Shown: in pieces, positions 26,019 to 64,000 of the stretch
Numbering within the stretch: position 1 is the first letter of the stretch
Layout of the letters: each line of letters opens with the position of its first letter
NCBI GenBank assembly: GCA_963847705.1
Contig: CAWKBC010000047.1
Coordinates: 192,626 to 256,625, forward strand
From: an uncultured Pseudomonadota bacterium
GTDB lineage: Bacteria > Myxococcota_A > Polyangia > Fen-1088
Reading direction: 5' to 3'
Length of the DNA: 64,000 bases
Notes under the pieces: generated by a model
The model's database searches: none
Told to the model about the DNA's origin: nothing
What the model saw: the letters and a program-made list of their open reading frames with translations, nothing else
Made by a program: the position numbers and the translations under genes

Positions 26019-26302
26019 GGGAGAGCTCCTTTCAAGAAGCTCAGAGAGTGGGGACCTCTTGCGAAAGGACAATCGACCGGTCAGAAAACGAGGCAATCAC
26101 CCAAGGGTAGTACCGCTGATTGCAGGAGCTCGAAGCGGCGGTAATCGCCGTCGCCGGCCCGCGTCCGGAAGAGGGAGTGGGCCCGGGGAGGGCATTCACC
26201 ACACTGGCGCGCCGTTTGGCGTGATCGGTCAACTATGCGGCGCGTGCCGACAAGCGAGCTGGAAGGGCCGGCGCTATGAAGGAGCGACCACGGAGGGGGG
26301 CC

Positions 26303-26578
26303 ATGACGAAGAAGGTGTCGGGAACCGATCCCGGCCAGCGCAGACTGAACGGACCACAAACGACCGGTCGCGACTACCGCAACCTCTCGCAGCCGGAGTA
26401 CGAGATGGCGCGCGACGACGATGTGGCGGTACCGATGAGGGACGGTGTGGCCCTTCTCGCGGACGTGCACCGCCCGACCAAGCCGGGGCACTATCCGGTG
26501 CTCATCGCCGCCGCCGCCCGGTGGGTGGCAGAAATAATCTTGCCCTGGATCGGCGCGCCAGGGGTTTCCTGTGCATGA
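26303..26578 (+). pseudogene. 5' fragment of a CocE/NonD-family hydrolase
   Basis: VAVPMRDGVALLADVHRP...YPVLI, then stops; no catalytic core. Confidence 0.75.
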
Positions 26579-42829: not shown

Positions 42830-44224
42830 CTAGGAAGTCCGGGCCGGTCGCGCGGGATGCACGGCGTCCGCGCACACAGGGCAGGACTTTCCGACGACGG
42901 TCCGAGCTCGAATCGGTGCCCGCCACCCGTGCCCGAGTGGGCAGCGCCACCAAGCCGGCTGGTCGGAAGTCGCAATGACTGTGGCGGGGGTTGCACCACG
43001 GTTGCGCATACGGTCCCATTCGTCGGCGATCCTCGGATACAGCTTGGCGAGGGAGTTCGTGACGCTGACCCTGCGGTTGTCGCAGAACGGGCAGGACGCG
43101 TTCGTGCGCACCGTTTGGGCCACGGGCGCCTGCCACTGATGGTCGGGACCGCGCGGGCACCGCCACCAGACGGTCTCCTTCGACCACCGCATGACCTGCC
43201 GGGGCGAGAGCCGTGGGTTCCGCGCTCGATTCCACCGGGCCGCCACCCGGGGGTGTGTCGTCGCGAGACAGTTCGTGATCGAGACCTGCCTGTTATTGCA
43301 GAAGGGGCACCCTTTCGTTTGCTTCGCGCTCTGCACCCTTCGGCTCCATTCGTGGTCGGGACCCTGGTCGCACTTCCACCACACGAGGCGCGGCGATCCG
43401 GGAAGGACGTCTGTCGGTCGAAGGCTGCCATTCTTAGTCGAGTGCCAGAACCGGGCGAGGTCTGGTCGCCGTCGTGCGAGGTTGTTGTCGGCGCACGGGT
43501 AGCGTCCCGAGCAGAACGGGCAGCCGTAGCCTCCGCTGGTCCTCTGACTGACAGTCGTCCGCCACACGTGATCCGTGCCCTTCGGGCATTTCCACCAGAT
43601 GGGCTTGTCCGATGCCGAGACGATTCCGCCGGGTCGAAGCTTGCCGTTCTTCGTCGGATGCCACTGCCGCGCGACCGCCGGAAACCTCGTGGCCAAGCTG
43701 TTGGTCCGGCTAACCCATGTCCCCCGGCAGAACGGACACCCGTGCCCGTTCGACCGCTGCACCACCGGCGATTTCCACTCGTGGTCCGCGCCTTTGGGGC
43801 ACTTCCACCAGACGCGCTGGTGCGAACCGGCGACGACCTTTTCTGGGCGGAGCGCGCCGTTGCGGGTCGGATGCCACTGCCGGCTCAGTGCAGGGAATCG
43901 GCGCGCGAGGCTGTTCGTCACACTGACCTTGAGTCCGCGGCAGAACGGACAGCCTTTCCCCTGGGAGCGCTGTAGGACCGTCGCCTGCCACTCGTGGTCG
44001 CGACCCTTCGGGCACTTCCACCAGACTCGGATGTGGCTCCCTCCAGTCACGTAGGATGGGGTCAGGTCGCCGTTCTTGCGTCTTTGCCATTGAGCAGCCG
44101 CGACGGGAAACAGCTCGGCGAGCGAACCGCCTGGTTTGGGTTTGCGGTGCGAAAGGGTCGTCATGACCGTCGCGGCCAACTCCGCTTGAGGCGGGAGGGA
44201 GAGGCTGTGTTTCGTGAGCCTCAC
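42830..44224 (-). CDS. Zinc-ribbon repeat protein (DUF4379-like)
   Basis: Six repeats of WHPTKNG...WWKCPKG.DHEW...GCPFC. Confidence 0.88.
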   Translation of the reverse strand: MRLTKHSLSLPPQAELAATVMTTLSHRKPKPGGSLAELFPVAAAQWQRRKNGDLTPSYVTGGSHIRVWWKCPKGRDHEWQATVLQRSQGKGCPFCRGLKVSVTNSLARRFPALSRQWHPTRNGALRPEKVVAGSHQRVWWKCPKGADHEWKSPVVQRSNGHGCPFCRGTWVSRTNSLATRFPAVARQWHPTKNGKLRPGGIVSASDKPIWWKCPKGTDHVWRTTVSQRTSGGYGCPFCSGRYPCADNNLARRRPDLARFWHSTKNGSLRPTDVLPGSPRLVWWKCDQGPDHEWSRRVQSAKQTKGCPFCNNRQVSITNCLATTHPRVAARWNRARNPRLSPRQVMRWSKETVWWRCPRGPDHQWQAPVAQTVRTNASCPFCDNRRVSVTNSLAKLYPRIADEWDRMRNRGATPATVIATSDQPAWWRCPLGHGWRAPIRARTVVGKSCPVCADAVHPARPARTS

Positions 44225-44998: not shown

Positions 44999-47900
44999 TT
45001 GGCGAAGCGGTCGGGTTTGTTGCGAGGTCGGAGTCACCAGTTGGCGAACTCTGGATGCGGGAAGCACAGGAAGAGGGTGCGCTCCGACTGGTCCGGGATG
45101 GCGCTCGCAGCGTTGACTGTTGCGGCGATAGCGGCCTGTCAGAACCGTGACTCGCGTAACCTCGGAGGTGTCGCGGTCGAGACACAGGCCTCGGCTCCCG
45201 CGAACGTCACGACAGCGAGCGCAAGTCAGATTCTTGCGGCGGTTCAGGCGCAGCCCGCTTCGCCCGTGCAGCCGGCTGTTGCTCAAGGGTTCGCCAGTGC
45301 TGCGGGAGGGTTGCGCCCGCAGTTCTCAGCGTCGGCGGTAGCGACGGAGCCGAAGCCGGCCAATGTGGTGTTGCCGCAACTTTGTACGGCAGCCCTGCAT
45401 TTGGCGGATGTGGCGAGCGGCGCTGCCGTCGACATCTCGCTGAACGGAGCGCTACCGGTGGCCGCCCAGACGGTCGGTGGGTACGTTGTTTATCCCAATG
45501 CCTTTGGTTTGAGCGGGACGGTCCTGCATCGGGCTCTCCCGAGCGGCAGCGAAGACTTCATCGACCTGCCGACACGTCCGGCGACGCCCGAGGTCGACTA
45601 CAGCGTTGCGCTCGGAACCGGCATCGCGGGGCTCCGGCTCGTTTCGGGGACACTCGAGATGCTCGACGCCGGTGGCGTGCCCCGTCTGCACGTCCCGCCG
45701 CCGTACATCGTGGGCGCCGACGGCACTCGCACCGACGGCGCGCTGGCCGTCAGCGGCTGCGCAGTCGACAGCGATCCGAGCGGCCCGTGGGGGCGTCCGG
45801 TCACCGCGCCCGGCGCTTCGAACTGCACGGTGCAGGTCACCTGGCCCGATGCGTCGGTAGTTTATCCGGCAATTCTGGACCCGCGCTGGACGACGACCGG
45901 CTCGATGGGGTCGCGCGCTTCGAGCACACGCTGCTGCTGCTCTCGACGGGGAAAGCCATCGCGGCAGGCGGACGCAGCTCGACCACCGGGACCACTGGGC
46001 TGACGAGCGCCGAGCTTTACGATCCGACGAGCGGCACCTGGTCGCCGACCGGGAGCATGGCCAACGCACGGCGCTTGCACACCATGACGCAGCTCGGAAG
46101 CTCGTCGAACGGCACGACGAGTGGCAAGGTATTGGTCGCCGGCGGGATCAGCGGCACGACGAGCACGAACAGCGCGGAGCTCTACTCGCCGAGCGCAGGA
46201 ACGTGGATCGCCGCCGGGAACCTGGACGTCGCCCGGCACGCCCACACTGCGACTTTGCTGGCTGACGGCCGCGTGCTGGCCGCCGGTGGCCTCAACGGCA
46301 CCTCGATGCTGACGACCGCGGCACTCTACAACCCGGCCTCGGGCGCGGGGACCTGGGTCTCGACCACGGGGCCGGTTCCGCCGGGTGGCATCAAGAACCA
46401 TACGGCGACGCTGATCCAGACCACGAACACGCAGCTCAACAACCACGTGCTCCTCGTCGGCGGCAACAACGGCACCTCGACGATCTCGGCGGTGTATCTG
46501 TTCGACCCGGTCCAGAACGCCTTCAGCACGCTGGCGTCGATCCCGAGCCCCCCGCGCGAGCAACACACGGCGGTCACGCTGACGAATACCAACGGCAAGA
46601 TCTTGGTGGCCGGGGGTAAGAACGGCTCGACCGTGCTGGCGAGCGCGATTGTGTTCGACCCCAGCTTCAGCAACGGGACCTGGTCATCGGCCGGGACGAT
46701 GAACTCGCCGCGCGTGGGTCATTCGATGACCCAGCTTCCGAGCAGCATCGTGGCGAACGGACAGCTGCTGGTGGCGGGGGGATCGTCGACGGGTAGCGAC
46801 ACGCTGGCGTCGGCGGAGCTGTTCAGTGGGACGTCGACCTGGACGGTGACGCCCTCGATGCCGGGCCCCTTGCAGAACCAGCAGGCCGTGCTGCTGGGGG
46901 GCAACATGGTGCTCGTCGCCGGCGGGCTTTCGACGACCGGCACCGTGCAGAACGCCGCGTATCTGTACGACGCCTCCTTCGGTCTTGGGTGCACCACGAA
47001 CAGCCAGTGCTCTTCGGGATTTTGCTCCGCCGGGATCTGTTGCAACACCGCCTGTAGCGGAACCTGCGGGGCCTGCAACCTGGCCGGCCACCTTGGCACG
47101 TGTACGGCTCTGACCAGCGGGACGGTTTGTCGGGCGGCGGCTGGCGCCTGTGACGTCGCGGAGACGTGCGACGGCACTGCGTTGACCTGCCCGGCCGATG
47201 CCCTCGCTCCGTCGACCACGGTCTGCCGGGCGGCTGCCGGTGAGTGCGACGCAGCGGAGACCTGCACCGGCACCTCGGCGAGCTGCCCAGCCGATAGCAA
47301 GAAAGCGAGCGGGACCGCCTGCACCGACGACGGCAACCCCTGCACGCAGGACACGTGCGACGGCAGCGCCATCACCTGCCAGCATCCGGTAGGGAATGCA
47401 GGGACCGTCTGCCGCGCCTCGGCGGGGGCCTGCGACGTGGCGGAGACCTGCACCGGGACGAGCGCGACCTGTCCCGCCGACGGATTTGCGACGGCTTCGA
47501 CCGTCTGCCGGGCCGCGGGCGGTGAGTGCGATCTGGCCGAAACGTGCACCGGCACGTCGGCGAGCTGCCCCGCGGACAGCAAGAAGACAAGCGGCACCGC
47601 CTGCACGGACGACGGAAACGTCTGCACCAAGGACCAGTGCGACGGCAGCAACGTCCTCTGCCAGCATCCAGCCGGAAACGCGGGCACGGTCTGCCGCGGG
47701 TCGACGGGCATCTGCGACGTGGCGGAGGTCTGTACCGGGACGAGCACGACCTGTCCCGCCGACGGGAAGGCTCCGAACGGGACGACGTGCAGTGATGGCA
47801 ACGCCTGCACGACGGGAGACAGCTGCCAGAGCGGGACCTGCACTGGAACCGCGGTGACCTGCACGGCCCAGGACCAGTGCCACACGGCCGGGACCTGCAA

Positions 47901-50900
47901 TCCGTCGACGGGCGTCTGCTCGAACCCGGTCCTGGCGAACGGCACGACCTGCAGCGACGGAAACGCCTGCACGACGGGAGACAGCTGCCAGAGCGGGACC
48001 TGCACCGGAACCGCGGTGACCTGCACGGCCCAGGACCAGTGCCACTCGGCCGGGACGTGCAACCAGTCGACGGGCGTCTGCTCGAACCCGGTCCTCGCCA
48101 ACGGGACGACGTGCAGCGACGGCAACGCTTGCACGACCGGCGACAGCTGCCAGAGTGGGACCTGCACCGGAACCGCGGTGACGTGCACGGCGCAAGACCA
48201 GTGCCACTCCGCGGGGACGTGCAACCAGTCGACGGGTGTCTGCTCGAACCCGGTCCTGGCGAACGGGACGACCTGCAGCGACGGCAACGCGTGCACGACC
48301 GGAGACAGCTGCCAGAGCGGGACCTGCACCGGAACCGCGGTGACGTGCACGGCCCAGGACCAATGCCACTCGGCCGGGACGTGCAACCAGTCGACGGGCG
48401 TCTGCTCGAACCCGGTTCTCGCGAACGGGACGACGTGCAGCGACGGCAACGCCTGCACGACCGGAGACAGCTGCCAGAGCGGAACCTGCACCGGAACCGC
48501 GGTGACCTGCACGGCGCAAGACCAGTGCCACTCGGCCGGGACGTGCAACCAGTCGACGGGCGTCTGCTCGAACCCGGTCCTGGCGAACGGCACGACCTGC
48601 AGCGACGGAAACGCCTGCACGACCGGAGACAGCTGCCAGAGCGGGACCTGCACCGGAACCGCGGTGACCTGCACGGCCCAGGACCAGTGCCACTCGGCCG
48701 GGACGTGCAACCAGTCGACGGGCGTCTGCTCGAACCCGCCCGTGGCGAACGGGACGACGTGCAACGACAACAACGCCTGCACGACGGCCGACTCCTGCCA
48801 GAGCGGAACTTGCACTGGAACCACGGTGACGTGCACGGCGCAGGATCAGTGCCACGCAGCCGGGACCTGTGACCCGTCGAGCGGGCTCTGCACGAATCCG
48901 ACGAAATCCAACGGCGCGAGCTGCGACGACGGCAACGCCTGCACCACCGGCGACAGCTGTCAGGCGGGAAGCTGCGTGTCGGGCACGTCGACGTGCGTCG
49001 CGCTCACGGTGACGCAGACCGACGAGGGATTTGGTACCGCCGTCCAGTTCGACGCGGGCAACAGCTTTTCAGCGAGCGTGCCGAGCGCCGTTCCAGGGGA
49101 TTCGGTCACGTTCACCGTCACCCTCACCAACACCGGCGCGTTCATGCGGGCCAACGCCGGCATGCAGGTCACGAACAACGGGACGGTGCCATTCGTCTGG
49201 GGGAGCTACCAGGTCACGATGGAGTACCAGTCGCCGGTCACCGGTGAATGGACCGCCATCGCCAAGACCTCGTTCGACGCCAGCGGCGTCCAGAGCGACG
49301 CTCCGCCGCTGCTCCACATGAACATCGACAACTTCGTCGGCACCACCATCGCGCCGAACCAGACCGTGAACCTGGATTCGACCGAAAACGTGACCCTCCC
49401 GGCCGACCTGATCAACCTCCTCGGTGACCCGGCGGAGGTCAGTCAGGTCCGGGTCGAGCTGCACATCGACACGGGCTCCGGAACATCAGGCGTCACCGCG
49501 GACCGCGACATCACCGGCTCCTTCACGGACGGCCAGACGACCGCCACCAATTTCGGCTCGGGAGTGATGGGCTTTGCAAGCAATGACGTGACTATCAGCG
49601 TTCCGCTCACGCCGAGCACGACCGTGGTCCCCCCAGGGGAAGCTGTCACGTTCACCGGGACGGCCGCGGCGCCGCCGCTGGACCCCCGCCAGCCGGACGA
49701 ATCCGACTTCCAGTACCTCCGCCGCCTCCCGGGCAGCGGGTACGAGGCGCTGCTTCACCTCGATACGTTCTTCACCGGAAACGATCGCATCTTTTTCGCG
49801 CTCCTCGATCCGGTCCTCAATCTACAGAAGTCGGGTCCCGCGCAGGGGAACGCCGGGTTCACTCTGCCGTATACGGTCGCGCTCAAGAACGTCGGAACGG
49901 CGACCGCAGGGCCGATCACCATCGTCGACCTGGTGAACGGCATCGACGTCGGCGCGCAGGTCACGGCGCCTGCTTCGCTCGCGATAGGTGGCAGCGGCAC
50001 GGCCAGCGTCAATGCCGCCAGCCCGCTCGGTCAGGCGCCGGGCGCTTACACGGATCAGGCGTCGCTGACCTGGAAGGATCGCAACGGCACCGTCTACGGT
50101 CCGATTTCGAGTACCTTCACGACGAACCTCGCGGCTGGTCATCCGGAGGGCTACCTGTCGCTGGTCGCGACGGGGGTCGGCGGGCCGCAGATCATCGGTA
50201 CGCCGGTCACGCTGACGGCGACGGCCTTGGACGCGCTCGGCCACCCGGTGGCGAACCTTCCCGTGCAGCTGGCGATCGCGGGCTCGAACGCCCAGAGCAC
50301 CACGCTGGTGACCGGCAGCGACGGCACCGCGTCGTTCACCTACGACGGCCCGACGCTGGGCCGCGACACGGCGACCGCGACGGCCGTGATCAACGGGCCG
50401 ACCGTGCAGGCGACCGCGCCCACCTACACCTGGGCGTCGTCGGACGGGCCGCCGTGCACGGGCCGCACGACGCCGCTCGACGTGATGCTGCTGGTCGACG
50501 GCTCGCCCTCGATGTTCACCAACGACACCGTGGCGGCGGCGCAGGTCGCGGCGGATGGTTTCGTCGGCGATCTGAACCCGGACCTCGATCAGGTCGCGGC
50601 GGTGTTCTTCAACTTCGACGCCGAGCTGGCGGTGCCGTTCACTTCGGACGCAGCGACGGCCGACGCAGGGATCAACCAGGCGTTCGTGGACTTTGCCAAT
50701 GCCTGCGGCGGCTTCTGTCCCCCGGACAGCACCGACTACCCGAGCGGCTTTCAGACGGCGATCGACGAGCTCCAGGGGCCTCGCCACCGCCCCGGGGCCA
50801 CGCCGCTGATGGTGTTCCTGTCGGACGGGGGCAACACCGGCGCCGATCCTTCGCCCTACGTCGCGCAGCTGAGGGCGGCCGGCGTTCGGATCATCTCCCT

Positions 50901-53900
50901 GGGGTTCGGCCCCAACACCAACGTTCCGCTGATGAAGCAGATCGCCAGCTCGACGAACGACTACTTCTATGCGCCGACGACAGGGGAGCTGGGCTGGGCG
51001 CTCAGGAACATCGTGGGCGACGCCTGCCGGACGATTCCGCCGCTGGTGAGCGGCGGCGGGAACCAGGGGATCTACAGCGCGCGCCTGCCGGACAGTCTCA
51101 CGCTGAACGGCGAGATTCACGGCAGCGGACCGCAGGGGGACTTCGGTTTGATTGCGAGCTGGAGCGAGGTGAGCGGCCCTGGGCCCGTCACCTTCGTCGA
51201 CCCCAGCTCGCCGACGACGTCGGTGGTCTTCTCCGATCCCGGCACCTACGTCTTGAAGCTGGAAGTGAGCGACGGCCAGACGACCACCGCCCAACTCGTG
51301 ACCATCACCGTCGATCCGGCGCCGTCCCTGACGGGCGCCAGCCTGGTCCTCGCCCCGTCGTCACCGGGCCCCCTGACCATCGGGACGCCGGAAACGGTGA
51401 CGGCGACTCTGATCGACGCGCAGAGCCACCCGATCGGCAACTTCGTCGTCCAGGTGGCGGTGACGGGTGCGAATCCGACCGTGGCGACCCTGTCCACCAA
51501 CGCGGCCGGCGTGGCGACCTTCACCTACGCAGGAGCGATGGTCGGTACTGACACCGTGCAGGCGACGGCGATCGGCGGGACAGCCCAGCTTCAGTCGACG
51601 CCGGTGTCCATCGTCTGGACGGGCGTGCCGCCGGTCGGCAGCGCCGCCGCTCAGGGATGGATCGGCTCGCCCGCGACGCAGACGACGGTCATGGGCTTGG
51701 TGCCGATCAAGGTGGCGTCGGGCGTGACGGTCACGTCAGGCACGCTCAGCTACTGGCCGTCGACCAAGCCGACGGACATGCACGTCCTGACCACGACTGC
51801 GGCTGGAGGCCCGGGCGCCACGCTGGCGACGCTGGACACGACGGTGCTGTCGAACGGCACCTACATCATCGACCTCGACGGCACCGACGATCACGGCAAC
51901 CAGCAGGACAGCGAAGTCCTGGTGACCGTGGCCGGCGACTACAAGCCTGGCCGCGTCGTCGTCGACGTCCCCGAGTTCACGATCCCGGTGGCCGGGATTC
52001 CGATCTCGATCGGGCGACGCTACGACAGCCTCGAGCGCGAGAAGGTCGGCGACTTCGGCAACGGCTGGTCACTGCAGGTCGGCCATCCGGACCTGCAGGT
52101 CGACCAGGGGAACAACGTCACCATCACGATGCCCAACGGCCGCCGGGCGACGTTCCAATTCGAAATCCAGCCTGAGGCGGTCGGCGCGATCGTGCTCGGG
52201 TTCATCGCCCAGCCGATTTACGTTCCTGAGCCAGGCGTCTTCGGCACGCTGACCTCCGATGGGTGCAACCTGCTGGCGTTCGATCCGAGCAACCCCAATC
52301 CGATCTGCTTCGCCAGCCTCTTCGACCCCGACACCCTCAACTACGCGCCGACGACGTACAAATACACCGATCCCTACGGCGTGGTGTACACGATGGGCGT
52401 CGACGGGACGCTGCAGTCGATCCAGGACCGCAACAACAACGTCCTCACCTTCACCGCCGACGGGATCACCAGCCCCGTCAGCGGACAGACCGTGTCCTTT
52501 ACCCGAGATGTGCAGGGGCGAATCACGGCGATCGTGACGCCGCCGGTTGAGACCGTCTTCAACACGCGTTACGAATACGACTACGCGTACGACCCGAGCG
52601 GAAATCTCGTCTCGGACACGCGACCGGCCATCATCGGTGGCACGAACGCCCTGACGTACACGTACGACGGTGATCACCGCCTGTTGACGTCGGTCGACCC
52701 AACGGGCCACGCGGCGCGAACGTCGACGTACGACGACACCGGGCGGCTGGCGACGGACACGGACGCGCTGGGGAACGTGACGAGGTATGCCTACGACCTT
52801 TCGGGCCATGTCACGACGACCACCTTCCCTGACAGCGGTGTCTTGGCCCAGACTTTCGACGACCAGGGGTTGTTGCTGTCACAGACGGACCAACTCGGGC
52901 GGACGACGCAGCACCAGTACGACGCGAACCGGAACGAGGTGAAACGCACGAACGCGCTGAGCGAGGTGACGACCTACACCTACGATGCGAACGGGAACCA
53001 GACCTCCAGCACGAACGCGCTGGGCGAAGTGACGGCGACTACCTACAATGCGTTTTCTGAGCCGCTGACGACCACGAACCCCATCGGCAACACGACCACC
53101 ATTGCCTACGATGGCCAAGGGCTGCCGACCAGCTTCACCGACAGCATGGGCCCGCTGGCGACGTTCACGTCGGCGGAGCATGGGCAGCCGATCACCGTGA
53201 CGGATGCCGCGGGGAACACCGTGTATCTCGGCTACGACGTTTCCGGCGACCTGACGGCGCGTACAGACCGCCTGGGACGGGCGACCCTGTACTCATTCGA
53301 CGGGATTGGACGAAAGGTCTCCATGACGACGCCACTTGCCGTGGCTACTACTGGCGCCAAGTGGACGTACGACTACGACCAGCGCAATGAGTTGGCCGAC
53401 GCCACTGATCCGATCAACAGCATCTTCGGGACCCATCGGTACCTCTACGACGAGAACGGAAATACCGTGGGCGACTATTTTCCGTTCTCCGGCAACAGCT
53501 TCAACTACACCTACGACCCCCTGAATCACCTGACTCTGACGCAGTATGGGGATGGGTCGACGACGCAATACACGCGAGACTTTCGAGGGAACGCGCTCAC
53601 GCAGACCGATGAGGTCGGCAACCTCACGAGCTACACGTACGATCTGGCCGGTCAGCTCGTGCAGACGATATATGCGGACGGAACGTCTATTTCTCAGGGG
53701 TACGATTCCCTCGGACGTCTCACGTCGAAGACCGACGAGCGCGGCGGGACGACGACGTACGCCTACGAGCCGGGCTGCGATTGCACCGACCGGATGACGA
53801 GCGTGACGGACCCCCTCGGGCGCACGACGTCGATGACCTACGACGGCATGAGCCGGAAGACGTCGACGACCGATGCCTCAAGCCATCAGACGTTCTACGT

Positions 53901-55827
53901 CTACGACCTACGGGGGCATCTGATTGAGACCGACTACGCGGACGGCACGGCGACGCACGACACGTACGATGCTTTGGGGCGCCGGACTGCGAGCAAGGAT
54001 CAGACTGGCGCGACGACGCACTACGGATACGACGCCGAAGGCCAGCTCATCTCGGTCACCGATCCGCTCGCCAACCTGACGCAGTATGCCTATGACGCCG
54101 ACGGTAACCTGAGCTCGTTGACCGACGCCAACGGGCACGTCACGACGTACGCCTACGACCTTCTCGACGAGAAGACGCAGCGGACGTTGCCGCTCGGAAT
54201 GTCGGAGACCTTTACCTACGACCCATTGGGCGAGCAACGCACGCACACCGATTTCCGCGGCAAGACCACGACCATGACGTACGATCCGCGGAAGCGACTC
54301 CTCAGCAAGGTCCCGGACCCCAGCCTGAACGAGCCGACGGTGAGCTACGCGTACAACCTTGATGGCACGCGCACGCAGATGAAGGACGCAAGCGGCACGA
54401 CGACCTACGGTTACGACAACCGGAGCCGACTCCTCACGAAGGCGACACCCGAGGGGACTCTGACGTACACTTATGACGCGAGCGGCAACGTGGCGAGCAT
54501 CGACTCCTCGAACACGAACGGCACATCTGTGGCGTACGCCTGGGACCCGGCGAATCAGCTGGTCTCGGTGACCGACAACCGGCTCGGCGGCATGTCCACT
54601 GCGGCATATACGGCGACCGGGCGGCCAGCGAGTCTGGCGCAACCGAACGGCGTGAACGCGACTTATGGCTACGATTCGCTCGACCAGGTGACGTCGATGG
54701 CTTGGAAGAAGGGAGCGGCGGCTACCCTAGCAAGCTGGACTTACGCTTATAGCCCACGCGGCCAGCGTCTGACGTCGACCGACGTGACTGGTCGTGAGGC
54801 AACGTACGGCTACGACACGGCCTCCCGGCTGACGAGCGAAACGATCACGGGCGACCCAAGCGGCGAGATCGGCAACGGCGCGCTCACGTACTCCATCGAC
54901 CCATTTGGGAACCGCCTTAGCCGTGCGTCCACACTTGCTGCGCTCACCCCGCAGTCGTTCGGGTACGACGCAAACGACGAACTGACGAGTGACATCCACG
55001 ACCAGAACGGCAACACTACCGCCTCTGGCGGTCATACTTACGGGTACGATTTCGAGAATCGCCTCGTCTCCAGGGACGGTGGTTCCGTTACGATCCTTTA
55101 CGACGGCGACGGGAACCGGGTCACGAAGGCCGTCGGTGCGGTGACTACGAAGTACCTCGTCGACGAACTAAACCCGACGGGGTACCTGCAGGTTATGGAC
55201 GAGGTCTCGGGAGGATCGGTGCAGGTCCGGTACACGTTCGGGAACATGCTCGTCAGTCAGACACGAGACCCTAGCACCACGTCGGCAACGAGCTTCTACG
55301 GATACGACGCCCACCGAAGCATCGCATTCCTGACCGACGCGACCGGGGCTGTCACCGACACGTACACGTACGACGCGTGGGGGATTCTGGTCGCGCAGAC
55401 CGGAGCGACGGCCAACTCGAGGCTCTACGCGGGCGAGGAATTCGATTCGGACCTCGGGCTCATCAACATGCGGGCGCGTCAGTACAAGGCGAGTACCGCG
55501 CGGTTTGTATCCGCAGACTCTCTGTTTGGAAACCGGGACCTGCCCCTCAGTCTGAACCGATATCTCTATGCGAATGGGGATCCGATTGATGGGCTTGACC
55601 CGAGCGGACACCTCGATGCTGAGGAAAATGCCGTCATACTAGGCGGAATAGCAGTTGGGGTAGCAGCGACGATAATCATCCAGGGTAAGCCCGTTGATTA
55701 TTGTTTAGTAGGAGCAGGAGGGGCCGGAGCTTATATGGCCGCCGTAGTGGCGTCAGGACCGGTGGGTCTGGCGATTACTGCAGCATTCGCGACAATCTGT
55801 CTGATGAACACTCTTCCTTCCAAGTAG
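44999..55827 (+). CDS. Giant RHS/YD-repeat polymorphic toxin-like protein, split by a 1-nt frameshift at 45907-45910
   Basis: ORF 44999-46003 (lipobox IAAC ... LDPRWTTTGSM) joins ORF 45382-55827 at VARFEHT. Then Kelch repeats, Cys repeats, Ig/Big-1, vWA (DGSPS, LSDG), PKD-like, RRYDS, YD repeats and NRYLYANGDPIDGLDPSG. Confidence 0.88.
47776..48996 (+). repeat. Intragenic 162-bp (54-aa) Cys-rich tandem repeat, 7 full copies plus a partial
   Basis: NGTTCSDGNACTTGDSCQSGTCTGTAVTCTAQDQCHSAGTCNQSTGVCSNPVLA, with mostly synonymous variation. Confidence 0.95.
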
Positions 55828-55866
55828 GAACTTAGCGCGCGCTTCCGTGCAAGTAATTACATCGAC

Positions 55867-56424
55867 GTGGCGCGTAGAGAGGCAATTCATGCGATTGCTG
55901 TCGGCTTGCGGAGCATAATGGGAACACAAAGCCTGTCCATAGAGGGCACCGCTGCCCTTACGGAACTTGACGTGACGCAGGCGCAAGTCGAGCGCGCTTC
56001 GCGGTCTCCGCTCATGACCGTCGGGATATTAGGCGGTGTGATGCTTCTGCAAGCCGCCAGGCGTGCAAGCTTGGAGGCAGCTGTCATCTCATTGATAGTG
56101 ATGGGGTTTGGCGGTCTCGTTCTCGTTCATCAGGTCCCGCGCATCATAGCGCGTCGGCTCTACCGACGCCTTGTCAGCACCGGGGAGAACCTTTGGGCCT
56201 ATCGTTTCGACGATGAGGGGGTAACGATACGAGGTCCCGGAATGGTTGTTGGGTTCGGTTACGGTCACATGTCTCGCGTGCGCGAAAATGAGAGATCTTT
56301 GCAAATTCGGACGATCTTCTCTTCGGACCTGTGGATAGTTCCCAAACGGGCGTTCTCCGCCGACGATCTGTCGCGGATCCGCGTGCTGCTAAAAACTGCT
56401 GTTGGGACCCGCTCAATCTCCTAG
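55867..56424 (+). CDS. YcxB-like membrane protein, candidate immunity protein
   Basis: Two TM helices then YRFDDEGVTI...IVPKRAFS; lower GC; directly after the RHS tip. Start may be ATG 55918. Confidence 0.65.
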   Translation: MARREAIHAIAVGLRSIMGTQSLSIEGTAALTELDVTQAQVERASRSPLMTVGILGGVMLLQAARRASLEAAVISLIVMGFGGLVLVHQVPRIIARRLYRRLVSTGENLWAYRFDDEGVTIRGPGMVVGFGYGHMSRVRENERSLQIRTIFSSDLWIVPKRAFSADDLSRIRVLLKTAVGTRSIS

Positions 56425-56588
56425 AGATGTAGGGGTGCAGATCTGGTCGGTATGCCGGTCTGCGAAGGGAAACCGCGTTGCCTGAAGAATCCGGCGGCGG
56501 CCCTCTTGCTGGTCAGCTCGCTCCGCCAATGCTGGTCGACGAGGCCGACCATCACCTCGAAGCGTTAACTGCCGCGAATCGTCGCCGG

Positions 56589-56960
56589 TCAACTCGCCCG
56601 CCTCTCCTGCTGGGCGACGAAGGCCTCGACGATCTCGATGATCTTGTCCTGCTGACGGCGAGGCAGCTGGGCGACCTTCTGGAAGGCCTTCTGAGCGCGC
56701 CCGACGGAGCCGCGCTGGTGGGTGGGCGCAAGCTCGCCGTCGGGGGTGAGGAGGGTCTCGACGCTGACGCCGAGGACGCTGGCGAGCCTGGGAATGACAT
56801 CGGAGCGCGGCGGTTTGTCGGCCTGCTCCCAGTAGGCGATGTTTCGCTGGGACTCGCCGACAACGTCGGCGAGCTCGGTCTGGGTGAGGCCGGCGGCGCG
56901 CCGTAGCGCAGCCAAGCGCGCACCCTGACGCGGTCGCGGCTTGGAGAGCTTCCTGGGCAT
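56589..56960 (-). CDS. XRE-family HTH repressor
   Basis: LRRAAGLTQTELADVVGESQRNIAYWE...LASVLGVSVETLL. Confidence 0.9.
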   Translation of the reverse strand: MPRKLSKPRPRQGARLAALRRAAGLTQTELADVVGESQRNIAYWEQADKPPRSDVIPRLASVLGVSVETLLTPDGELAPTHQRGSVGRAQKAFQKVAQLPRRQQDKIIEIVEAFVAQQERRAS

Positions 56961-57020
56961 GGAGGAAGCGTAAGGCCAGGTCTCGTGGGAAGGGCCGAGG
57001 GGTGGAGATTGCTCTTGCAT

Positions 57021-57042
57021 GATTAGAAGTATACTTCTAATC
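57021..57042. promoter_or_regulatory. Perfect 22-bp palindrome, putative XRE operator
   Basis: GATTAGAAGTA|TACTTCTAATC between the divergent xre and primase genes. Confidence 0.75.
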
Positions 57043-57109
57043 TGCGTGCAGCGATGAGAAGTCGATACATCGGCCGATTTTTCCTTGACAGCTTTTGACG
57101 GAGGACGCG

Positions 57110-60085
57110 ATGGCCCGAGTCCCTGACAGCGAGCTCGAGCGCCTCAAGAGGGAGGTGTCGGTGGCGGGCCTGGCGGAGGCGCGGGGCATCGCGCTTGCGC
57201 GGCACGGCGCCGACTTGCACGGACTCTGCCCCTTCCACGAGGACAAGAATCCGTCGCTGGTCATCAGCCCCGAGCGAAACCTGTGGCACTGTCTCGGAGC
57301 GTGCCAGGCGGGTGGGTCCGTCATCGATTGGGTGATGAAGTCCGAGGGGGTCTCGTTTCGACACGCCGTCGAGCTGCTGCGCGCGGACGCGCCGCTCTCG
57401 ACGGCAACGAAGCCGGTGAAGGTGTCGACGGTGCGGCGGCTGCCGGCGCCGGTGAGCGCGGAAGCGGATGACCGCGCGGCGCTCGCGCAGGTAGCGGACT
57501 ACTACCACGCGATGCTGAAGGAGAGCCCAGAGGCGCTGGCGTATCTCGGGAGTCGTGGGCTGGTGTCGTCGGAAATGGTGGAGCGCTTCCGGCTCGGGTA
57601 CGCGAACCGAACCCTCGGCCTGCGGCTGCCGGAGCGGAATCGGAAGGCGGGCGAGGAGCTGCGCGGCCGTCTCGAGCGGCTCGGCGTGCTGCGCGAGAGC
57701 GGACACGAGCACCTGGCCGGCTCCCTCGTCGTGCCGCTCCTCGACGAGGCGGGCGGCGTGGTGGGGATGTACGGTCGGAAGATCCGGAGCGACCTCAAGG
57801 CGGGGACGCCGCTGCACCTGTACCTGCCGGGTCCGCACCGCGGCGTCTTCAACCTGGACGCCCTCCGCGCGTCGAAGACGGTGATTCTCTGCGAGGCGCT
57901 GATCGACGCTCTCACCTTTTGGTGCGCGGGCTTCCGGAACGTGACCTCCGCCTACGGCATCGAGGGCTTCACGCCCGAGATCCTCGAGTCCTTCAAGCGC
58001 CACAACATCGAGGAGGCGCTGATCGCCTTCGACCGCGACGAAGCTGGCGACCGCGGCGCCGAGAAGGTGGCGGCGGCGCTCATCGAGGCGGGCGTCACCT
58101 GCCGGCGGGTGGAATTTCCGAAGGGGATGGACGCGAACGAATACGCGCTTCGAATGAAGCCGGCGGCGAAGGCCTTCGAGGTGGCGCTGGCGGGCGCGAA
58201 GCTGCTGGGACACGGCAAGGGACGAACGGCGAGCACGTCGCCGACGCCGAGGCTACTGCCCTCATCGGTCACGTCGCCATCACCCGCCCCGTCATCGCCA
58301 CCGCCGGCGTCGCCAGCACCGGCATCGCTGTCACCCGCCGCCGAGGTCGAGGGCGACGAGGTGCGCTTTGCTTTCGGCGATCGGCGTTACCGCGTGCGCG
58401 GCCTCGCGCGAAACACGAGCTTCGACAGCCTGCGCGTAAACCTCCTCGCCGGCCGGAGCGAGCGCTTCCACGTCGACACGCTGGACATCTACAGCGCGCG
58501 GCAGCGCGCGGCGTACGTGAAGCAGGCGACGGAGGAACTCGGCGCCCAGGAGGACGTGATCAAGGCCGACGTGGGCAAGGTGCTGCTCAAGCTGGAGGAG
58601 CTGCAGGACGCGAGCGCGCGCGAGGCGTGCAAGCCAAAGACGGCGGTGCCGGCGCTGACCGACGCGGAGACGAGCGCGGCGCTGGCGCTGCTGAAAGATC
58701 CGCACCTGCTCGATCGCATCGTGGCGGACTTCGAGCGGTGCGGCGTCGTCGGTGAGGAGACAAATAAGCTGGTCGGCTACGTCGCCGCCATCTCGCGGAA
58801 ACTCGACGAGCCGCTGGCGGTGATCATCCAGAGCTCGACGGCGGCGGGGAAGTCGTCGCTGATGGAGGCGGTGCTGGCGTTTGTGCCGGAGGAGGAGCGG
58901 GTGAAGTACTCGGCGATGACGGGGCAGTCGCTCTTCTACATGGGGGAGACGGAGCTGGCCCACAAGGTGCTGGCGATCGTCGAGGAAGAGGGAGCTGCGC
59001 GGGCGTCGTACGCGCTGAAGATCTTGCAGAGCGAGGGGGAGCTGCAGATCGCGTCGACGGGGAAAGATCCGGAGACGGGAAAGCTGGTGACGCACGAGTA
59101 CCGGGTGGAGGGGCCGGTGATGATCTTTCTGACGACGACGGCGATGGAGATCGACGAGGAGCTTTTGAACCGATGCCTGGTGCTGACGGTGGACGAGGAC
59201 CGTGGGCAGACGCAGGCGATCCACGAGCGGCAGCGGGCGGCGCGGGAGCTTGCGGGGCGGCTGGCGAGGAAGAGCCGAGACGGCATCCTGGCGCTGCACC
59301 GAAACGCGCAGCGCCTGCTGCGCCCGCTGCTCGTCGTGAACCCCTACGCGCGTCGTCTCAGCTTTCCAGATCACCGGACGCGGACGCGGCGGGATCACGT
59401 GAAGTATCTGACGCTGATCGAGACGGTGGCGCTTCTGCACCAGCACCAGCGGGCGGTGAAGACGGTGGAGCACGAGGGGAAGCTGGTGGAGTACATCGAG
59501 GTGACGCTCGACGACGTGGCGGTGGCAAATCGCCTGGCGCACCAGGTGCTGGGGCGGTCGCTGGACGAGCTGTCACCCCAGACGCGGCGGATGCTGACGC
59601 TGCTCGACGGGATGGTGGCGGCGGCGTGTGAGCGGCTGGCGATGTCGCGGAAGGATTTTCACTTTAGCCGCAAGGAGGTGCGAGCGGCGACGGGGTGGAC
59701 GGACTTCCAGGTGCGGACGCACCTCGAGAAGCTGGTGGCGCTCGAGTACGTGCTCGTGCACCGCGGCGCTCGCGGGCAGAGCTTCGTGTACGAGCTCTGC
59801 TACGACGGCAAGGGGCAAGACGGCGCGCCCTTCGTGATGGGCCTGGTCGAGGCCGCGACGCTGGCGGGCACGCGTACGACGCCGACATCGAGCATCGAAA
59901 ACGGTCGGTTCGAGGGTGGGTCGAGCCGTCAACGAGCATCCAACGAGCCCCCATCGAGGGCGGGCCTTTCGGGCGAAAACGCTGGTGAAGACGCGGGCGT
60001 CGCGCGCTCTCGGCCGCCGAGGGCGAAAACCACGCACGAGGGGCGCGGAGCCAACGGCCGGTCGTATGCGCACTCGGTGGCGTGA
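57110..60085 (+). CDS. CHC2 zinc finger/TOPRIM primase fused to a P-loop NTPase (primase-helicase)
   Basis: CPFH...WHCLGAC; CEALIDAL and FDRDEAG; Pro/Ser linker; SSTAAGKS, IVEEE, DEELLNR; wHTH-like C-terminus. Confidence 0.9.
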   Translation: MARVPDSELERLKREVSVAGLAEARGIALARHGADLHGLCPFHEDKNPSLVISPERNLWHCLGACQAGGSVIDWVMKSEGVSFRHAVELLRADAPLSTATKPVKVSTVRRLPAPVSAEADDRAALAQVADYYHAMLKESPEALAYLGSRGLVSSEMVERFRLGYANRTLGLRLPERNRKAGEELRGRLERLGVLRESGHEHLAGSLVVPLLDEAGGVVGMYGRKIRSDLKAGTPLHLYLPGPHRGVFNLDALRASKTVILCEALIDALTFWCAGFRNVTSAYGIEGFTPEILESFKRHNIEEALIAFDRDEAGDRGAEKVAAALIEAGVTCRRVEFPKGMDANEYALRMKPAAKAFEVALAGAKLLGHGKGRTASTSPTPRLLPSSVTSPSPAPSSPPPASPAPASLSPAAEVEGDEVRFAFGDRRYRVRGLARNTSFDSLRVNLLAGRSERFHVDTLDIYSARQRAAYVKQATEELGAQEDVIKADVGKVLLKLEELQDASAREACKPKTAVPALTDAETSAALALLKDPHLLDRIVADFERCGVVGEETNKLVGYVAAISRKLDEPLAVIIQSSTAAGKSSLMEAVLAFVPEEERVKYSAMTGQSLFYMGETELAHKVLAIVEEEGAARASYALKILQSEGELQIASTGKDPETGKLVTHEYRVEGPVMIFLTTTAMEIDEELLNRCLVLTVDEDRGQTQAIHERQRAARELAGRLARKSRDGILALHRNAQRLLRPLLVVNPYARRLSFPDHRTRTRRDHVKYLTLIETVALLHQHQRAVKTVEHEGKLVEYIEVTLDDVAVANRLAHQVLGRSLDELSPQTRRMLTLLDGMVAAACERLAMSRKDFHFSRKEVRAATGWTDFQVRTHLEKLVALEYVLVHRGARGQSFVYELCYDGKGQDGAPFVMGLVEAATLAGTRTTPTSSIENGRFEGGSSRQRASNEPPSRAGLSGENAGEDAGVARSRPPRAKTTHEGRGANGRSYAHSVA

Positions 60086-61200
60086 TGGCAGCGCGCGGGG
60101 AGCGGAAGCCGAAGCGCCCCATCGGCAACCTGGCCGACGCGAACGGCATGGGGCGGGCGGTGGCGGATCACCTGGGGTGGCGGCAGACGAAGGGGCAGAG
60201 CGAGAGCACGGTGACGGGGGCGCGGCAGCTGCTCGGGTACTTTGTGGCGTGGTGCGAGGAGCGCGGCATCACTAAGCCGGTGGAGGTGACGCGGGAGACG
60301 ATCGAGCGGTACCAGAAGTGGCTCCATGCGTACCGGCAGGCGAAGAGCGACAGGCCGCTGACGTTTACGAGCCAGAGCAAGCGCGCGGGGATCGTGCTGG
60401 AGCTTTTCCGATGGCTGTCGCGGGCGCACCGGATCCTGGTGAACCCCGGTGCGGACATCGAGCTGCCGAAGGTGGAGAAGCGGCTGCCGGACGTGCTGAC
60501 GGTGGCGGAGGTAGAGCGGATCCTCGGGGCGGTCGACGTGACGACGGCGCTCGGGGTGCGGGATCGGGCGATTCTCGAGACGCTGTACTCGACGGGGATG
60601 CGGCGGATGGAGCTGTGCGCGCTGTCGCTGCACGACGTGGACCTGGAGCAAGGGATCGTGAAGGTCCGGCAGGGCAAGGGGAGCAAGGACCGGGTGATCC
60701 CGATCGGCGCGCGGGCCGTCGCGTGGATCGAAAAGTATCTGGCCGAGGTGCGGCCGGGGCTGGTCGTCGATTCGGCGGAGCGGGCGCTTTTCCTGACGAT
60801 GTTTGGGGCGCCCTTCAGCAAGAGCCACGTGACGACGGCGGCGCGGGCGTACAAGGTGCTGGCGGGGGTGGAGAAGAGAGGGTCGTGCCACATCTTTCGG
60901 CACACGGCGGCGACGCAGATGCTCGAGAACGGAGCCGACACACGCTACGTGCAGGCGCTGCTCGGGCACGAGGCGCTGTCGACGACGCAGATCTACACGA
61001 AGGTGGCGATCCGAAAGCTCAAGGAGGTGCACACGGCCACGCACCCGTCAGCGCGTCTCGGCAAGCATGGCGGCGCTACAGCGGCCGCCAGCGCCGACGA
61101 CGAGGACGAAGCGACGCCAGCGACGCCGAACGGCCCCATGAGCCCCGGCCAGGCGACGAGATGGCTGCGGCGATATCGAGCCGCGACCGGCCCCACCTAG
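60082..61200 (+). CDS. Xer-type tyrosine recombinase
   Basis: Complete catalytic set: STGMR, GKGSK, HIFRH, LGH, TQIY; GTGA-coupled to the primase. Confidence 0.92.
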   Translation: MMAARGERKPKRPIGNLADANGMGRAVADHLGWRQTKGQSESTVTGARQLLGYFVAWCEERGITKPVEVTRETIERYQKWLHAYRQAKSDRPLTFTSQSKRAGIVLELFRWLSRAHRILVNPGADIELPKVEKRLPDVLTVAEVERILGAVDVTTALGVRDRAILETLYSTGMRRMELCALSLHDVDLEQGIVKVRQGKGSKDRVIPIGARAVAWIEKYLAEVRPGLVVDSAERALFLTMFGAPFSKSHVTTAARAYKVLAGVEKRGSCHIFRHTAATQMLENGADTRYVQALLGHEALSTTQIYTKVAIRKLKEVHTATHPSARLGKHGGATAAASADDEDEATPATPNGPMSPGQATRWLRRYRAATGPT

Positions 61201-61419
61201 ACGGCACGTCGCCCCGCCGGTGACCACGCCGTCGGCCGGCTCGCTTTCCTACCGCCCGTTTCGAGGGCTGCGAGTGATTTCCCGTCGGAGAATCGCTTCG
61301 GCGCGCGGTCCGAACGGCGAGAAGTATCACTAAAACACGAAGGAGACCGGGCGGTTAGGTGTGCTCACGTATCAGCGACGATCGGAGAGGTATCACCTTT
61401 TCCTTTTTCATTTGGCCTA

Positions 61420-61438
61420 GATACGCGGAACGCGTATC
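61420..61438. other. Hairpin upstream of the mobC-like gene
   Basis: GATACGCG-gaa-CGCGTATC in an AT-richer intergenic region. Confidence 0.55.
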
Positions 61439-61570
61439 AGGCCCTTTATCTTGCCTTCATGCCCGACCTCCTATGAAAGCAACTTTCGTGAGCATCGAGG
61501 AAGCATCGACGTCTACAATCGCGACGAGCTTCGTCAGCAGAATCGTGGGCCGAGAGTGGAGGAAGAGTCG

Positions 61571-61827
61571 ATGCGAACGCGGTACACCGTCGGGCAGATC
61601 GAGGTGGTGCGGCAGGCGCTGAGGAAGGTGCGGCCGACGGATCGAAAGCTGCGGCAGATGAGCAAGCAGTCAGCGATCGCGGCGCTGGGGGGGAGATCCG
61701 TCAGATGCGGCGGAAGGGTCACACGCTGGCCGACGTCGCGGCCTTCCTGTCGGAGAAGGGTGTGGAGGTCACGACGGACACGCTGAAGAACTACCTCTAT
61801 CGTCTCAAGAAGAGAGAGCGGCCGTAG
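61571..61827 (+). pseudogene. MobC-like mobilization accessory protein, frameshifted in a G7 run
   Basis: MRTRYTVGQIE...SKQSAIAALGG, then in another frame EIRQMRRKGHTLADVAAFLSEKGVEVTTDTLKNYL; G7 at 61687-61693. Confidence 0.6.
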
Positions 61828-61854
61828 CCGGCGATGTCAGCGGGGGCCGGCGCC

Positions 61855-62460
61855 TGCGTCACCGCGGACGATGGGCGGGTGTGGCGGCGGCGGTCAGCAA
61901 GGCGAGCCGTTGGCGTCACCGCGGACGATGGACGGGCGTGGCGGCGGCGGTCAGCAAGGCGAGCCGTCGGCGTCACCGCGGACGATGGGCGGGCGCAGCG
62001 GTGGCGGTCAGCAAGGCGAAGCCGTCGGCGTCATCGCGGACGATGGGCGGGCGCAGCGGTGGCGGTCAGCAAGGCCGAGCCGTCGGCGTCATCGCGGACG
62101 ATGGGCGGGCGCAGCGGTGGCGGTCAGCAAGGCCGAGCCGTCGGCGTCACCGCGGACGATGGGCGGGGGTGGCGGTGGTGGTCAGCAAGGCCGAGCCGTG
62201 GGCGTCACCGCGGACGATGGGCGGGTGTGGCGGCGGTGGTCAGCAAGGCGAGCCGTCGACGTCACCGCGGACGATGGGCGGGCGTGGCGGTGGTGGTCAG
62301 CAAGGCGAGCGGTCGGCGTCACCGCGGACGATGGGCGGGTGTGGCGGCGGCGGTCAGCAAGGCGAGCGGTCGGCGTCATCGCGGACTACTGGTGGGCGCG
62401 GCGGCGGCGGTCAGGAAGGCGAGCCATCGACATCATCGCAGCTGATCGGCGGGCGTCAAC
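61855..62460. repeat. 57/58-bp non-coding tandem array, about 10.5 copies
   Basis: Unit ggcgtcaccgcggacgatgggcggg..ggtcagcaaggcgagccgtc starting at 61855, 61912, 61969, 62027, 62085, 62143, 62201, 62258, 62315, 62372. Confidence 0.93.
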
Positions 62461-62677
62461 GCGACAGCGCGCGGTCGTCACGCGCGGCGAGCGTGATCGG
62501 AGCAGCGCCGTCAACGAAGGCGAGCACTGGCGTCGATGTGGTGGGTGTCCTGGCTTGCAAGCCGCAGGACGGCGTAGCCGGCGACCGGGGGCCGTGGTCG
62601 ACGCCGATCCCCCCTGCCCGGAGGGCCGAGGGTGGCCGGTGGCCCGAAGGGCCACTCGAGATCGGCCCCCGAGCAGA

Positions 62678-62776
62678 GCGCCCCTCCCCCCTGGGGATAC
62701 CTTATGGAGCGAGCGAAGCGAGAGACAGGGGGGTGCCAGGGGTAGGGGGTCCAGGGGGAAGGGGCGCGGCGGGGGG
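62678..62776. other. G/C-rich stem-loop with six G-tracts, origin-like
   Basis: 17-bp arms at 62678-62694 and 62751-62767 (1 mismatch); loop contains GAGCGAGCGAAGCGAG. Confidence 0.55.
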
Positions 62777-62882
62777 AGCGGCGGCCAAGGCTTGCCTGTC
62801 AGGGGGACCGGCGAGATGGGGCACGCGGCAGCCCTCGGGCGAGCGCTCGGGATCGGCGATCGCCGCGGGCCGCCCCTGTCGC

Positions 62883-63179
62883 TCAGACGTCGCGGAGAGT
62901 GATCCGGGTGTCGCCGAAGACCGCGCTCACCTCGAGCTTGCCGCCGAGACCCTCGACGAAGCGCCGGATAGTCGAGACCATGTGGTCGTCGCGGCGCTCG
63001 ATCTTCGACAGCTCCGACTGCGCCAGCTTCGACAGCAAGGCGAGCTCGGTCTGGGTCTTGCCTGCCGATTCGCGCAGCGCGCGCAAATCCATCTCGACCA
63101 GCTCCTCGATCGCCTCTCGATCGATTTTCCGGATCTCCTCCTCGGAGAACCTCATCCGTCGCAGCTCGTCCCACTTCAT
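62883..63179 (-). CDS. XRE/HigA-like antitoxin
   Basis: LRALRESAGKTQTELA...QSELSKIE...STIRRFVEGLGGKLEV; GAGGAG RBS. Confidence 0.88.
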   Translation of the reverse strand: MKWDELRRMRFSEEEIRKIDREAIEELVEMDLRALRESAGKTQTELALLSKLAQSELSKIERRDDHMVSTIRRFVEGLGGKLEVSAVFGDTRITLRDV

Positions 63180-63270
63180 TTTTTCTCCTCAAACGCTCCT
63201 TGCGCTTGGTCTTCGTCGGAACGCTCCTCGCGCCCTTGGATTAAATGTATACAGCCACGGACCTAGTCGC

Positions 63271-63291
63271 TCAAGCGAATTATTCGCTTGA
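63271..63291. promoter_or_regulatory. Perfect inverted repeat, putative TA operator
   Basis: TCAAGCGAAT-t-ATTCGCTTGA between the divergent antitoxin and toxin genes. Confidence 0.72.
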
Positions 63292-63323
63292 CCTCATAAT
63301 GCCGTCCATCCAAGCTGACGCTC

Positions 63324-63656
63324 ATGGTCGAGATCGAGACCACCGAAGCCTACAAAGACTGGTATCTCGATCTGGAGAAGCGAGAGGCGGCCGCCGTCGA
63401 CCGCAAGGTCAAGATGCTGCAGCTCCTGGGCCTCGCGCTCCCCTTCCCGCATTCGAGCGACATCAAGGGCACCAAGTACGCCTTCCGCGAGCTGCGCGTG
63501 AACAACCCACCTATCCGCGTCCTCTACGCCTTCGATCCTGAGCGCAACGCCGTGCTCATCATCGGCGGCGACAAGTCCGGCGACAATCGCTTCTACGAGC
63601 GGATCGTCCCGCAGGCCGAAAAGCTCTGGCTCGAGTACCTGGCGCAGCGACCCTGA
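63324..63656 (+). CDS. RelE/ParE-family (Gp49/HigB-like) toxin
   Basis: FPHSS, RELRV, IRVLYAFDPERNAVLIIGGDK, RFY. Confidence 0.9.
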   Translation: MVEIETTEAYKDWYLDLEKREAAAVDRKVKMLQLLGLALPFPHSSDIKGTKYAFRELRVNNPPIRVLYAFDPERNAVLIIGGDKSGDNRFYERIVPQAEKLWLEYLAQRP

Positions 63657-64000
63657 TCCCGCCCGCCGGTCCCGGCCCTCGACGGTCAGCGTGCCACAGC
63701 CGGGCCCTTTCCCTTTAGTCGCCCATCCCAGGTAAAATCGAGCCTCGGCGATGAGGGCGGCGCTCCACAGGGCAGCTAGGACGGGCAATCCCGATCGAGG
63801 CCGCGACCTCCACGACGGCCGCCGCCACGCCCGGCACGCTGCTCCGCGCTCTGGCGCGCACGCGTCCCGCTGGTGCGTCGACGAACTCGCCGAACGCGCG
63901 CCCCGGCCGCCCCGCCTTCGCGCCGACCGTCGCGCCCAGCGAACGCCTCTCGGCGGCGGAACTCGCGTCGGGCCCTCGGAACTCTATGGCTACGATGCCC

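Follow-up and report, generated by a model that had tools for sequence, protein, structure and literature searches.

The DNA analyzed here (hereafter the window) comprises the last 64 kb of contig C47 in the source genome, whose assembly is 85% complete and contains frameshifts. Towards its right end, the 3' part of an RHS polymorphic toxin gene is interrupted by an element of 8,688 bp (positions 55,295-63,982) that encodes an XRE repressor, a primase-helicase fusion and a tyrosine recombinase. It is highly probable that this small recombinase element carries and swaps toxin-tip/immunity cassettes by site-specific tip replacement. A preliminary description of the window had named these genes and proposed that they belong to an element carrying such cassettes; all of them are present, each in single copy in the genome.

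The XRE repressor is encoded on the minus strand (56,589-56,960; its start may extend to 57,020) and was recognized in family scans; a divergent XRE gene is found in most homologous loci. On the plus strand, the next gene (57,110-60,085) encodes a 991 amino acid protein with a CHC2 zinc finger, a DnaG-type TOPRIM domain (E262, D308 and D310), an MCM-like AAA+ domain (Walker A K581, Walker B E625/E626, and R688) and a C-terminal winged-helix-like part. The Walker A and arginine-finger residues are invariant among its homologues. The stop codon of this gene overlaps the start codon of the tyrosine recombinase gene (TGATG; 60,085-61,200, plus strand), whose product retains all six catalytic residues (R173, K198, H269, R272, H295 and Y304) and matches NCBIfam PRK01287, labelled 'XerC', at 405.3 bits (cut-off 371). 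The earlier reading of a CHC2-TOPRIM-NTPase of about 990 residues, coupled to a catalytically complete recombinase, was thus accurate. Homologous recombinases in relatives are annotated as xerC. Assignment to the chromosomal XerC or XerD families was rejected, both scores being below cut-off (TIGR02224, 231 against 335 bits; TIGR02225, 248 against 330 bits), and in a quick tree the two Xer-like proteins of the host branch apart from the element recombinase.

The helicase half had been likened to that of P4-like elements, a comparison that we revise. The best fold matches to a structural model of the C-terminal half (pLDDT 80) are MCM helicase subunits (E = 2e-9, TM-score ~0.44), and this half is accordingly predicted to fold like MCM and not like the superfamily 3 (SF3) helicase of P4 alpha. 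A PDB sequence search with the helicase profile returned no match, and the features of D5-type (SF3) primase-helicases were not found, with no D5 match in Pfam. Upstream of the primase gene lies the AT-rich 22-bp palindrome (57,021-57,042) of the preliminary description. It is indeed perfect and may serve as an operator for XRE, but it is one of 17 perfect palindromes of at least 22 bp in the genome and is not kept in homologues, where arms of at most 7 bp were found in the upstream regions compared. A promoter scan revealed nothing near it. In most homologues compared, the hexamer TTGACA (57,085-57,090) is kept ~25 bp before the primase start, too near for a usual -35 box.

The host part of the RHS gene (45,098-55,294, plus strand) encodes a lipoprotein-like start (a reading made by eye), Kelch, disintegrin-like repeats, vWA, Ig and DUF6531 domains, and YD repeats. 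The fused gene ends at 55,827 and matches Pfam RHS_repeat and NCBIfam Rhs_assc_core (65.6 bits, cut-off 32.5); 162-bp repeats also occur in it (45,098-55,827). Its YD repeats, DPxG core end, variable tip of low guanine-cytosine (GC) content and small downstream gene are those of an RHS polymorphic toxin. The element contributes, in frame, the end of the RHS core through the DPSG codons (55,295-55,608, plus strand), followed by a tip of 72 amino acids (55,609-55,827, plus strand), a hydrophobic candidate toxin with a GC content of 0.53 compared with 0.63 in the core. Downstream, an ORF (open reading frame; 55,867-56,424, plus strand) encodes a YcxB-like membrane protein (Pfam 6.9e-6, above cut-off) that is exchanged together with the tip and, judging from its position, is a likely immunity protein. 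The tip and its neighbour had been described as directly preceding the element; they do adjoin its core genes, but lie inside it. RHS tips of congeners are short, hydrophobic and cysteine-containing, and belong to no family.

The left end of the element lies inside the RHS gene, at YGYDA codons situated 100 codons 5' of DPSG. This left attachment core (attL; 55,295-55,312, plus strand; codons F-Y-G-Y-D-A-H) is matched at 15 of 18 positions by the final 18 bases of the contig (attR; 63,983-64,000, plus strand), a second copy of the YGYDA codons that would begin the displaced RHS end. Between the genes and attR extends a non-coding right arm (63,700-63,982, plus strand) with the motifs TTTAGYYG at -269, CRRCTAR at -210 and a GCGTC that ends 13 bp short of the core. 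The right limit of 62,800 first given was therefore too short, since a HigA/HigB-like gene pair and this arm reach 63,982. The two ends of the element in the window were called as attL and attR by homology.

Three observations define these bounds. First, in the congener G017 the same arm (~300 bp, 85% identity) is joined straight to an RHS end with a different tip, followed by an XRE gene, and the RHS end next to the arm is 77% identical to 55,295-55,485. Second, TTTAGYYG and CRRCTAR are both present here, a combination found in only 2 of 30,446 genome windows. Third, in four sequencing runs from separate studies, contigs begin at 55,288-55,295, run along the RHS end and rejoin the window at the XRE stop, having exchanged only the tip-immunity cassette for 984 other letters (three runs) or 1,210 (one run). 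Tip swaps among near relatives had been anticipated with breakpoints near DPSG; the swaps are found, with the breakpoint 100 codons upstream. The tip of the window is present neither in the contigs of the four runs nor among the congener RHS ends compared, and the lack of contig cover over the tip in the runs compared by itself proves nothing.

Other loci have the same architecture, their downstream RHS fragments starting abruptly after a non-coding arm. In 15 left/right pairs, homology to the toxin gene begins 10-13 bp after a CGTC-type motif, with identity to the left of this point at chance level (5-12 of 30); the pairs were selected by hand, which favours a fixed spacing. One locus outside this set, in genome G380, also fits the spacing from CGTC to core, by eye. 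A search of 89 genomes with the 301-bp arm returned one real match, the remaining matches being GC-rich noise. The fused RHS end reads YGYDAHR, as do three of three orphan ends in congeners, while six of seven primary ends of congeners read YGYDAHG; the six congener RHS loci examined contained no element gene. No tRNA site was found for the element, and an Rfam scan gave no match.

Empty and filled cdiA alleles that differ by exactly the element were identified at two loci in Escherichia coli. Strain C11 has a cdiA gene with a tip (B) and no insertion, and in ZYB39 the same locus holds two tandem units of 7,782 bp, with tip A fused to cdiA, tip B now located behind the last arm, and flanks 96-99.8% identical to those of C11. 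At a second cdiA locus, strain 1303 has tip C, and C10 has the same unit (99.97% identity), tip A fused and tip C displaced. Both sides of these insertions have only 15 bp in common, at VVENN codons, reduced to 13 bp by a mismatch in C10, which is far below the length that RecA needs. E. coli thus provides site-specific integration with attL, attR and an empty attB. Traces of the process were also present: in a third strain the unit (97.8%) follows a 1,359-bp tip-immunity-arm cassette; strain 1303, which is free of the element, has an arm remnant in front of an orphan; and in one further genome examined tip A is an orphan without the element core genes. RHS-targeting versions of the element also occur in E. 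coli; searches of Ralstonia and of E. coli rhs loci gave no clean empty allele.

A primase pattern search of species-representative genomes recovered at least 562 relatives among the first 600 matches, and 76 loci were kept. They belong to Pseudomonadota, Acidobacteriota, Myxococcota, Planctomycetota and other phyla, and the order divergent XRE, primase, recombinase recurs among them, in agreement with the earlier statement on such trios beside rhs and cdi tips. On the same strand, 19 of 29 full-flank loci have an RHS-end motif within 4.5 kb upstream, and 19 of 22 have one within 3 kb past the recombinase; on the opposite strand the counts are 0 of 29 and 0 of 22, and the baseline in the host genome is 9 of 2,668 windows. 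These counts are not independent because the loci are top matches, some of them from one genome or genus. Three of 60 relatives had partial matches to the family. Several Planctomycetota loci (L013, L018, L020, L021 and L024) encode shorter primase-helicases without the zinc-finger region, several per genome and mostly with no RHS motif nearby. In Leptospira, 13 plasmid records (H19-H30 and H34) carry the primase, often in two or three copies.

The conserved codons at which the carried RHS or CdiA fragment starts vary with the lineage, and the resulting classes, labelled by hand and compared with a quick recombinase tree, mostly follow recombinase clades, with one exception. The clades would therefore be aimed at different codons, namely VENN, YxYV, YNYxR, FPGQY, FLSxDP, DPIG, GKERD and YGYDA. 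At two loci (L185 and L186, in G376 and G265) the arm adjoins a tip that lacks an RHS-end motif, and some lineages may thus cross over 3' of DPxG or target other toxin classes.

Toxin-gene enrichment, the empty and filled E. coli alleles, and the differences confined to the tip cassette among near relatives together support the proposal that the element carries and swaps cassettes. We propose that the recombinase of the element likely links a circular form with the short core in the toxin gene. Insertion would fuse the element tip in frame, add the likely immunity gene and push the old tip downstream. The recombinase is the probable cutter, because the position is fixed ~13 bp after the CGTC motif of the arm. 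XRE would repress the primase-recombinase operon until induction, when the element would excise and its primase and MCM-like helicase would copy the circle. Through further rounds of insertion, and as core genes are lost, arm-tip-immunity cassettes could then be left behind and build up orphan arrays.

A circular intermediate fits several records. An 11,289-bp circular record from Lonsdalea, deposited as a plasmid, contains two arm-tip junctions and the core genes and no host RHS; exact terminal repeats are present in 6 of 76 contigs; and tandem units occur at five loci (L053, L084, L135, L137 and L182). The last of these is a separate 20,586-bp contig (C5) in the five-contig genome G380, with nothing on it but tip cassettes and two units of the element, and is possibly an extrachromosomal multimer. 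On the other side, terminal repeats can arise from collapsed tandem arrays, and neither a circle-junction read nor a raised copy number was obtained for the source genome, the runs being contigs of relatives. Summed contig depth is greater over the element than over RHS, which is not a measure of copy number. Gene content, tandem copies and circle-like records lead us to infer excision, and on the same grounds we judge the chances of autonomous replication to be about even.

This bears on whether the element is self-sufficient. With the same insertion chemistry, it could instead be a helper-dependent satellite that does not replicate by itself and relies on a phage or conjugative element to be copied or moved, a tentative and less likely alternative. 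As previously described, no capsid, terminase, relaxase or type IV secretion system (T4SS) genes matched among the scanned element ORFs. Cell-to-cell transfer would need a helper, and the scattered occurrence among phyla (8 of 300 genomes in a phylum sample; 60 of 5,426 in E. coli) calls for a vehicle. However, the motifs of both the primase and the helicase are intact and do not vary, the Lonsdalea circle was deposited as a plasmid, and the family, found in 35 plasmid records, had no match in 50,697 phage records; among 16 viral-contig loci there was one full-length relative, itself beside RHS.

It is also conceivable, if rather unlikely, that a selfish element uses toxin genes as a safe, self-enforcing landing site, the tip change being a by-product and the fused tips not functional weapons. 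Extra toxin-antitoxin pairs do ride along: the window has candidates for a HigA-like helix-turn-helix (HTH) antitoxin (62,883-63,179, minus strand) and a HigB/RelE-like (Gp49) toxin (63,324-63,656, plus strand), both detected by family scans, and its own tip, hydrophobic and short, belongs to no family. Elsewhere, however, the in-frame fusions yield full-length annotated cdiA or rhs genes, the carried tips include annotated nucleases with paired immunity genes, and cassettes vary while the element core genes are conserved. This alternative would alter the purpose of the element and leave the mechanism unchanged.

An improbable route is insertion of the circle by host RecA recombination via the carried RHS fragment (as proposed by Jackson et al., 2009), the recombinase serving only to resolve multimers or to excise. 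RHS-type elements do carry 50-450 bp of core sequence, and a few loci have longer exact repeats on the left and right (91 bp at L017 and 253 bp at L135). Yet the RHS ends on the two sides mostly share 70-87% identity, the E. coli cdiA pairs have just the 13-15 bp in common, and the onset of homology keeps a constant spacing to the arm motif. Finally, an island lying by chance beside an RHS gene, or an artefact of an incomplete, frameshifted assembly whose contig ends at the right junction, can practically be dismissed, since the same junction appears in an independent congener and in four independent runs, junctions are present in complete E. coli genomes, and the enrichment also contradicts it.

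Several results weigh against integration by the element's recombinase as the explanation of the window, as does the non-independence of the loci noted above. A position matrix built from proteobacterial arms misses the proximal arm of the window (score -5.2, with 9,154 genome positions equal or better), and a broader matrix scores 11.5 here while 46 genome positions score above 10; by themselves, position matrices give weak or no support for this arm. No empty allele was found for the exact locus of the window, and the displaced old tip would lie beyond the contig end. The assembly has a frameshift in the RHS gene near 45,910, and in family scans the tip matches no known toxin family. Ten of the 29 full-flank loci lack the upstream RHS-end motif; with looser patterns, six of these show an RHS-end or Hint-like motif farther off and four show none.

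The segment between recombinase and right arm holds further cargo. An AT-rich segment of ~90 bp (61,368-61,457) also occurs elsewhere in the genome and in two congeners, at unrelated loci (G000:C12:17,201-17,289; L147; L148), and is possibly the end of another mobile element. A small basic HTH-like gene (61,571-61,827, plus strand) had been taken for MobC; it is frameshifted here, intact in relatives (85-105 amino acids) and lineage-specific, and it has no MobC match in Pfam, NCBIfam, PHROGs or Atlas, with weak HTH matches only. The tandem array reported previously is present (61,856-62,456; 57 bp, 10.5 copies, 91% matches) and is absent from the congener element. The GC-rich segment that follows (62,550-62,820) is 91-92% identical in two congeners, inverted in G017. 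Its supposed origin-like hairpin has a weak fold, only marginally better than that of shuffled sequences (z = -1.98; 4 of 200 as good).

The window also encodes, upstream of the RHS gene, a second tyrosine integrase, of phage type (41,262-42,437, minus strand), and the RHS locus may lie inside a larger island. Nearby are a protein with six DUF4379 treble-clef zinc fingers (42,830-44,224, minus strand) and, further off, a 2,130 amino acid protein (26,017-32,406, plus strand) whose domains are of the ice-binding-like adhesive and M4 peptidase types, adjoined by an FG-GAP repeat gene.

How tips are acquired while the old tip is kept downstream has been a question for RHS and contact-dependent inhibition (CDI) systems since 2009, when circles were predicted with no integrase at hand. 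The element is a candidate for the vehicle, the enzyme and the base-exact sites of tip swapping, which elements of this kind probably drive, and the question therefore reduces to a recombination assay. Its parts are of known types, and a minority of genomes carry it. We lean slightly towards a broader reading, in which unrecognised replicating integrative elements of several phyla would be a dedicated engine of polymorphic-toxin diversification. Their 'xerC'-labelled recombinase would act at conserved codons to rewrite RHS and CdiA genes, would have changed its target at least eight times, and would have left footprints that explain orphan arrays even in strains that have lost the element. The annotations also suggest that many 'xerC' genes are not chromosome-dimer resolvases.

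The literature searched contained no description of the element; most subscription journals and supplements lay outside its coverage, and loci of this type may be among those in Additional File 1 of PMC3482391. A paper on Xenorhabdus doucetiae CDI was considered as a source of the module and rejected, its text having no primase, Xer, integrase or SymE; Poole 2011 likewise has none of these. The portions consulted of PMC11278526, PMC6287321, PMC10210955, PMC3486870 and preprints were irrelevant or had just SymE near cdi or rhs. The closest precedent is the C-terminal displacement model of Jackson et al. (2009; PMC2935791), in which an episomal circle with a core fragment and tip enters by a single crossover and the old tip is shunted downstream; tip-carrying circles were predicted there and, in the part of the text available, no integrase was noted with Rhs. 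In the accessible text of the 'fossil record' model (Ruhe et al., 2016; PMC4927057), new cdiA-CT/cdiI modules enter cdiA by integration and displace the previous pair, with integrase genes among the orphans; that text names no vehicle, site or enzyme, whereas the E. coli alleles described here give candidates for all three.

Small integrating elements with primase-helicase replication functions include P4-like satellites and phage-inducible chromosomal islands (PICIs), SCCmec with its MCM-like Cch, and prophages with primase-MCM fusions. Unlike P4-like elements and PICIs, the present element has no capsid-remodelling or packaging genes among its scanned ORFs, its helicase is MCM-like, and its target is a toxin gene and not a tRNA or housekeeping gene. 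It integrates as do integrative and conjugative or mobilizable elements (ICE/IME), as the E. coli alleles show, but no relaxase or T4SS was found in family scans. In Bacteroidales, a tyrosine recombinase is tied to the accumulation of toxin-defence cassettes in rAID systems, which collect immunity genes. XerC/D-like recombinases are also found next to loci for polyimmunity (Zhang et al., 2012; PMC3482391), which, in the text available, collect immunity genes as well; the present element instead rewrites the toxin gene and encodes replication proteins.

Gamma-Mobile-Trio islands (bioRxiv 10.1101/2023.03.28.534373), as far as the accessible text describes them, combine a small trio including a tyrosine recombinase, clade-specific sites and antibacterial effectors; those effectors are cargo, whereas the tips of the present element fuse into the host gene. 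The element recombinase scores 25.6 bits against the GmtY cut-off of 340, and no GmtZ or GmtX match was found in the element. What this recombinase family would offer is in-frame fusion via a very short core, with clade-specific targets. In integrons, a new cassette enters in front and the old ones are shunted back, and the arm-tip-immunity units of the element stack in the same manner. The integron parallel was drawn previously, with no integrase given in the part of the paper available (Kirchberger et al., 2017; PMC5361080). In contrast to integrons, the recombinase described here is not IntI (TIGR02249, 112.8 against a cut-off of 265), travels inside the cassette and has its site within a coding sequence.

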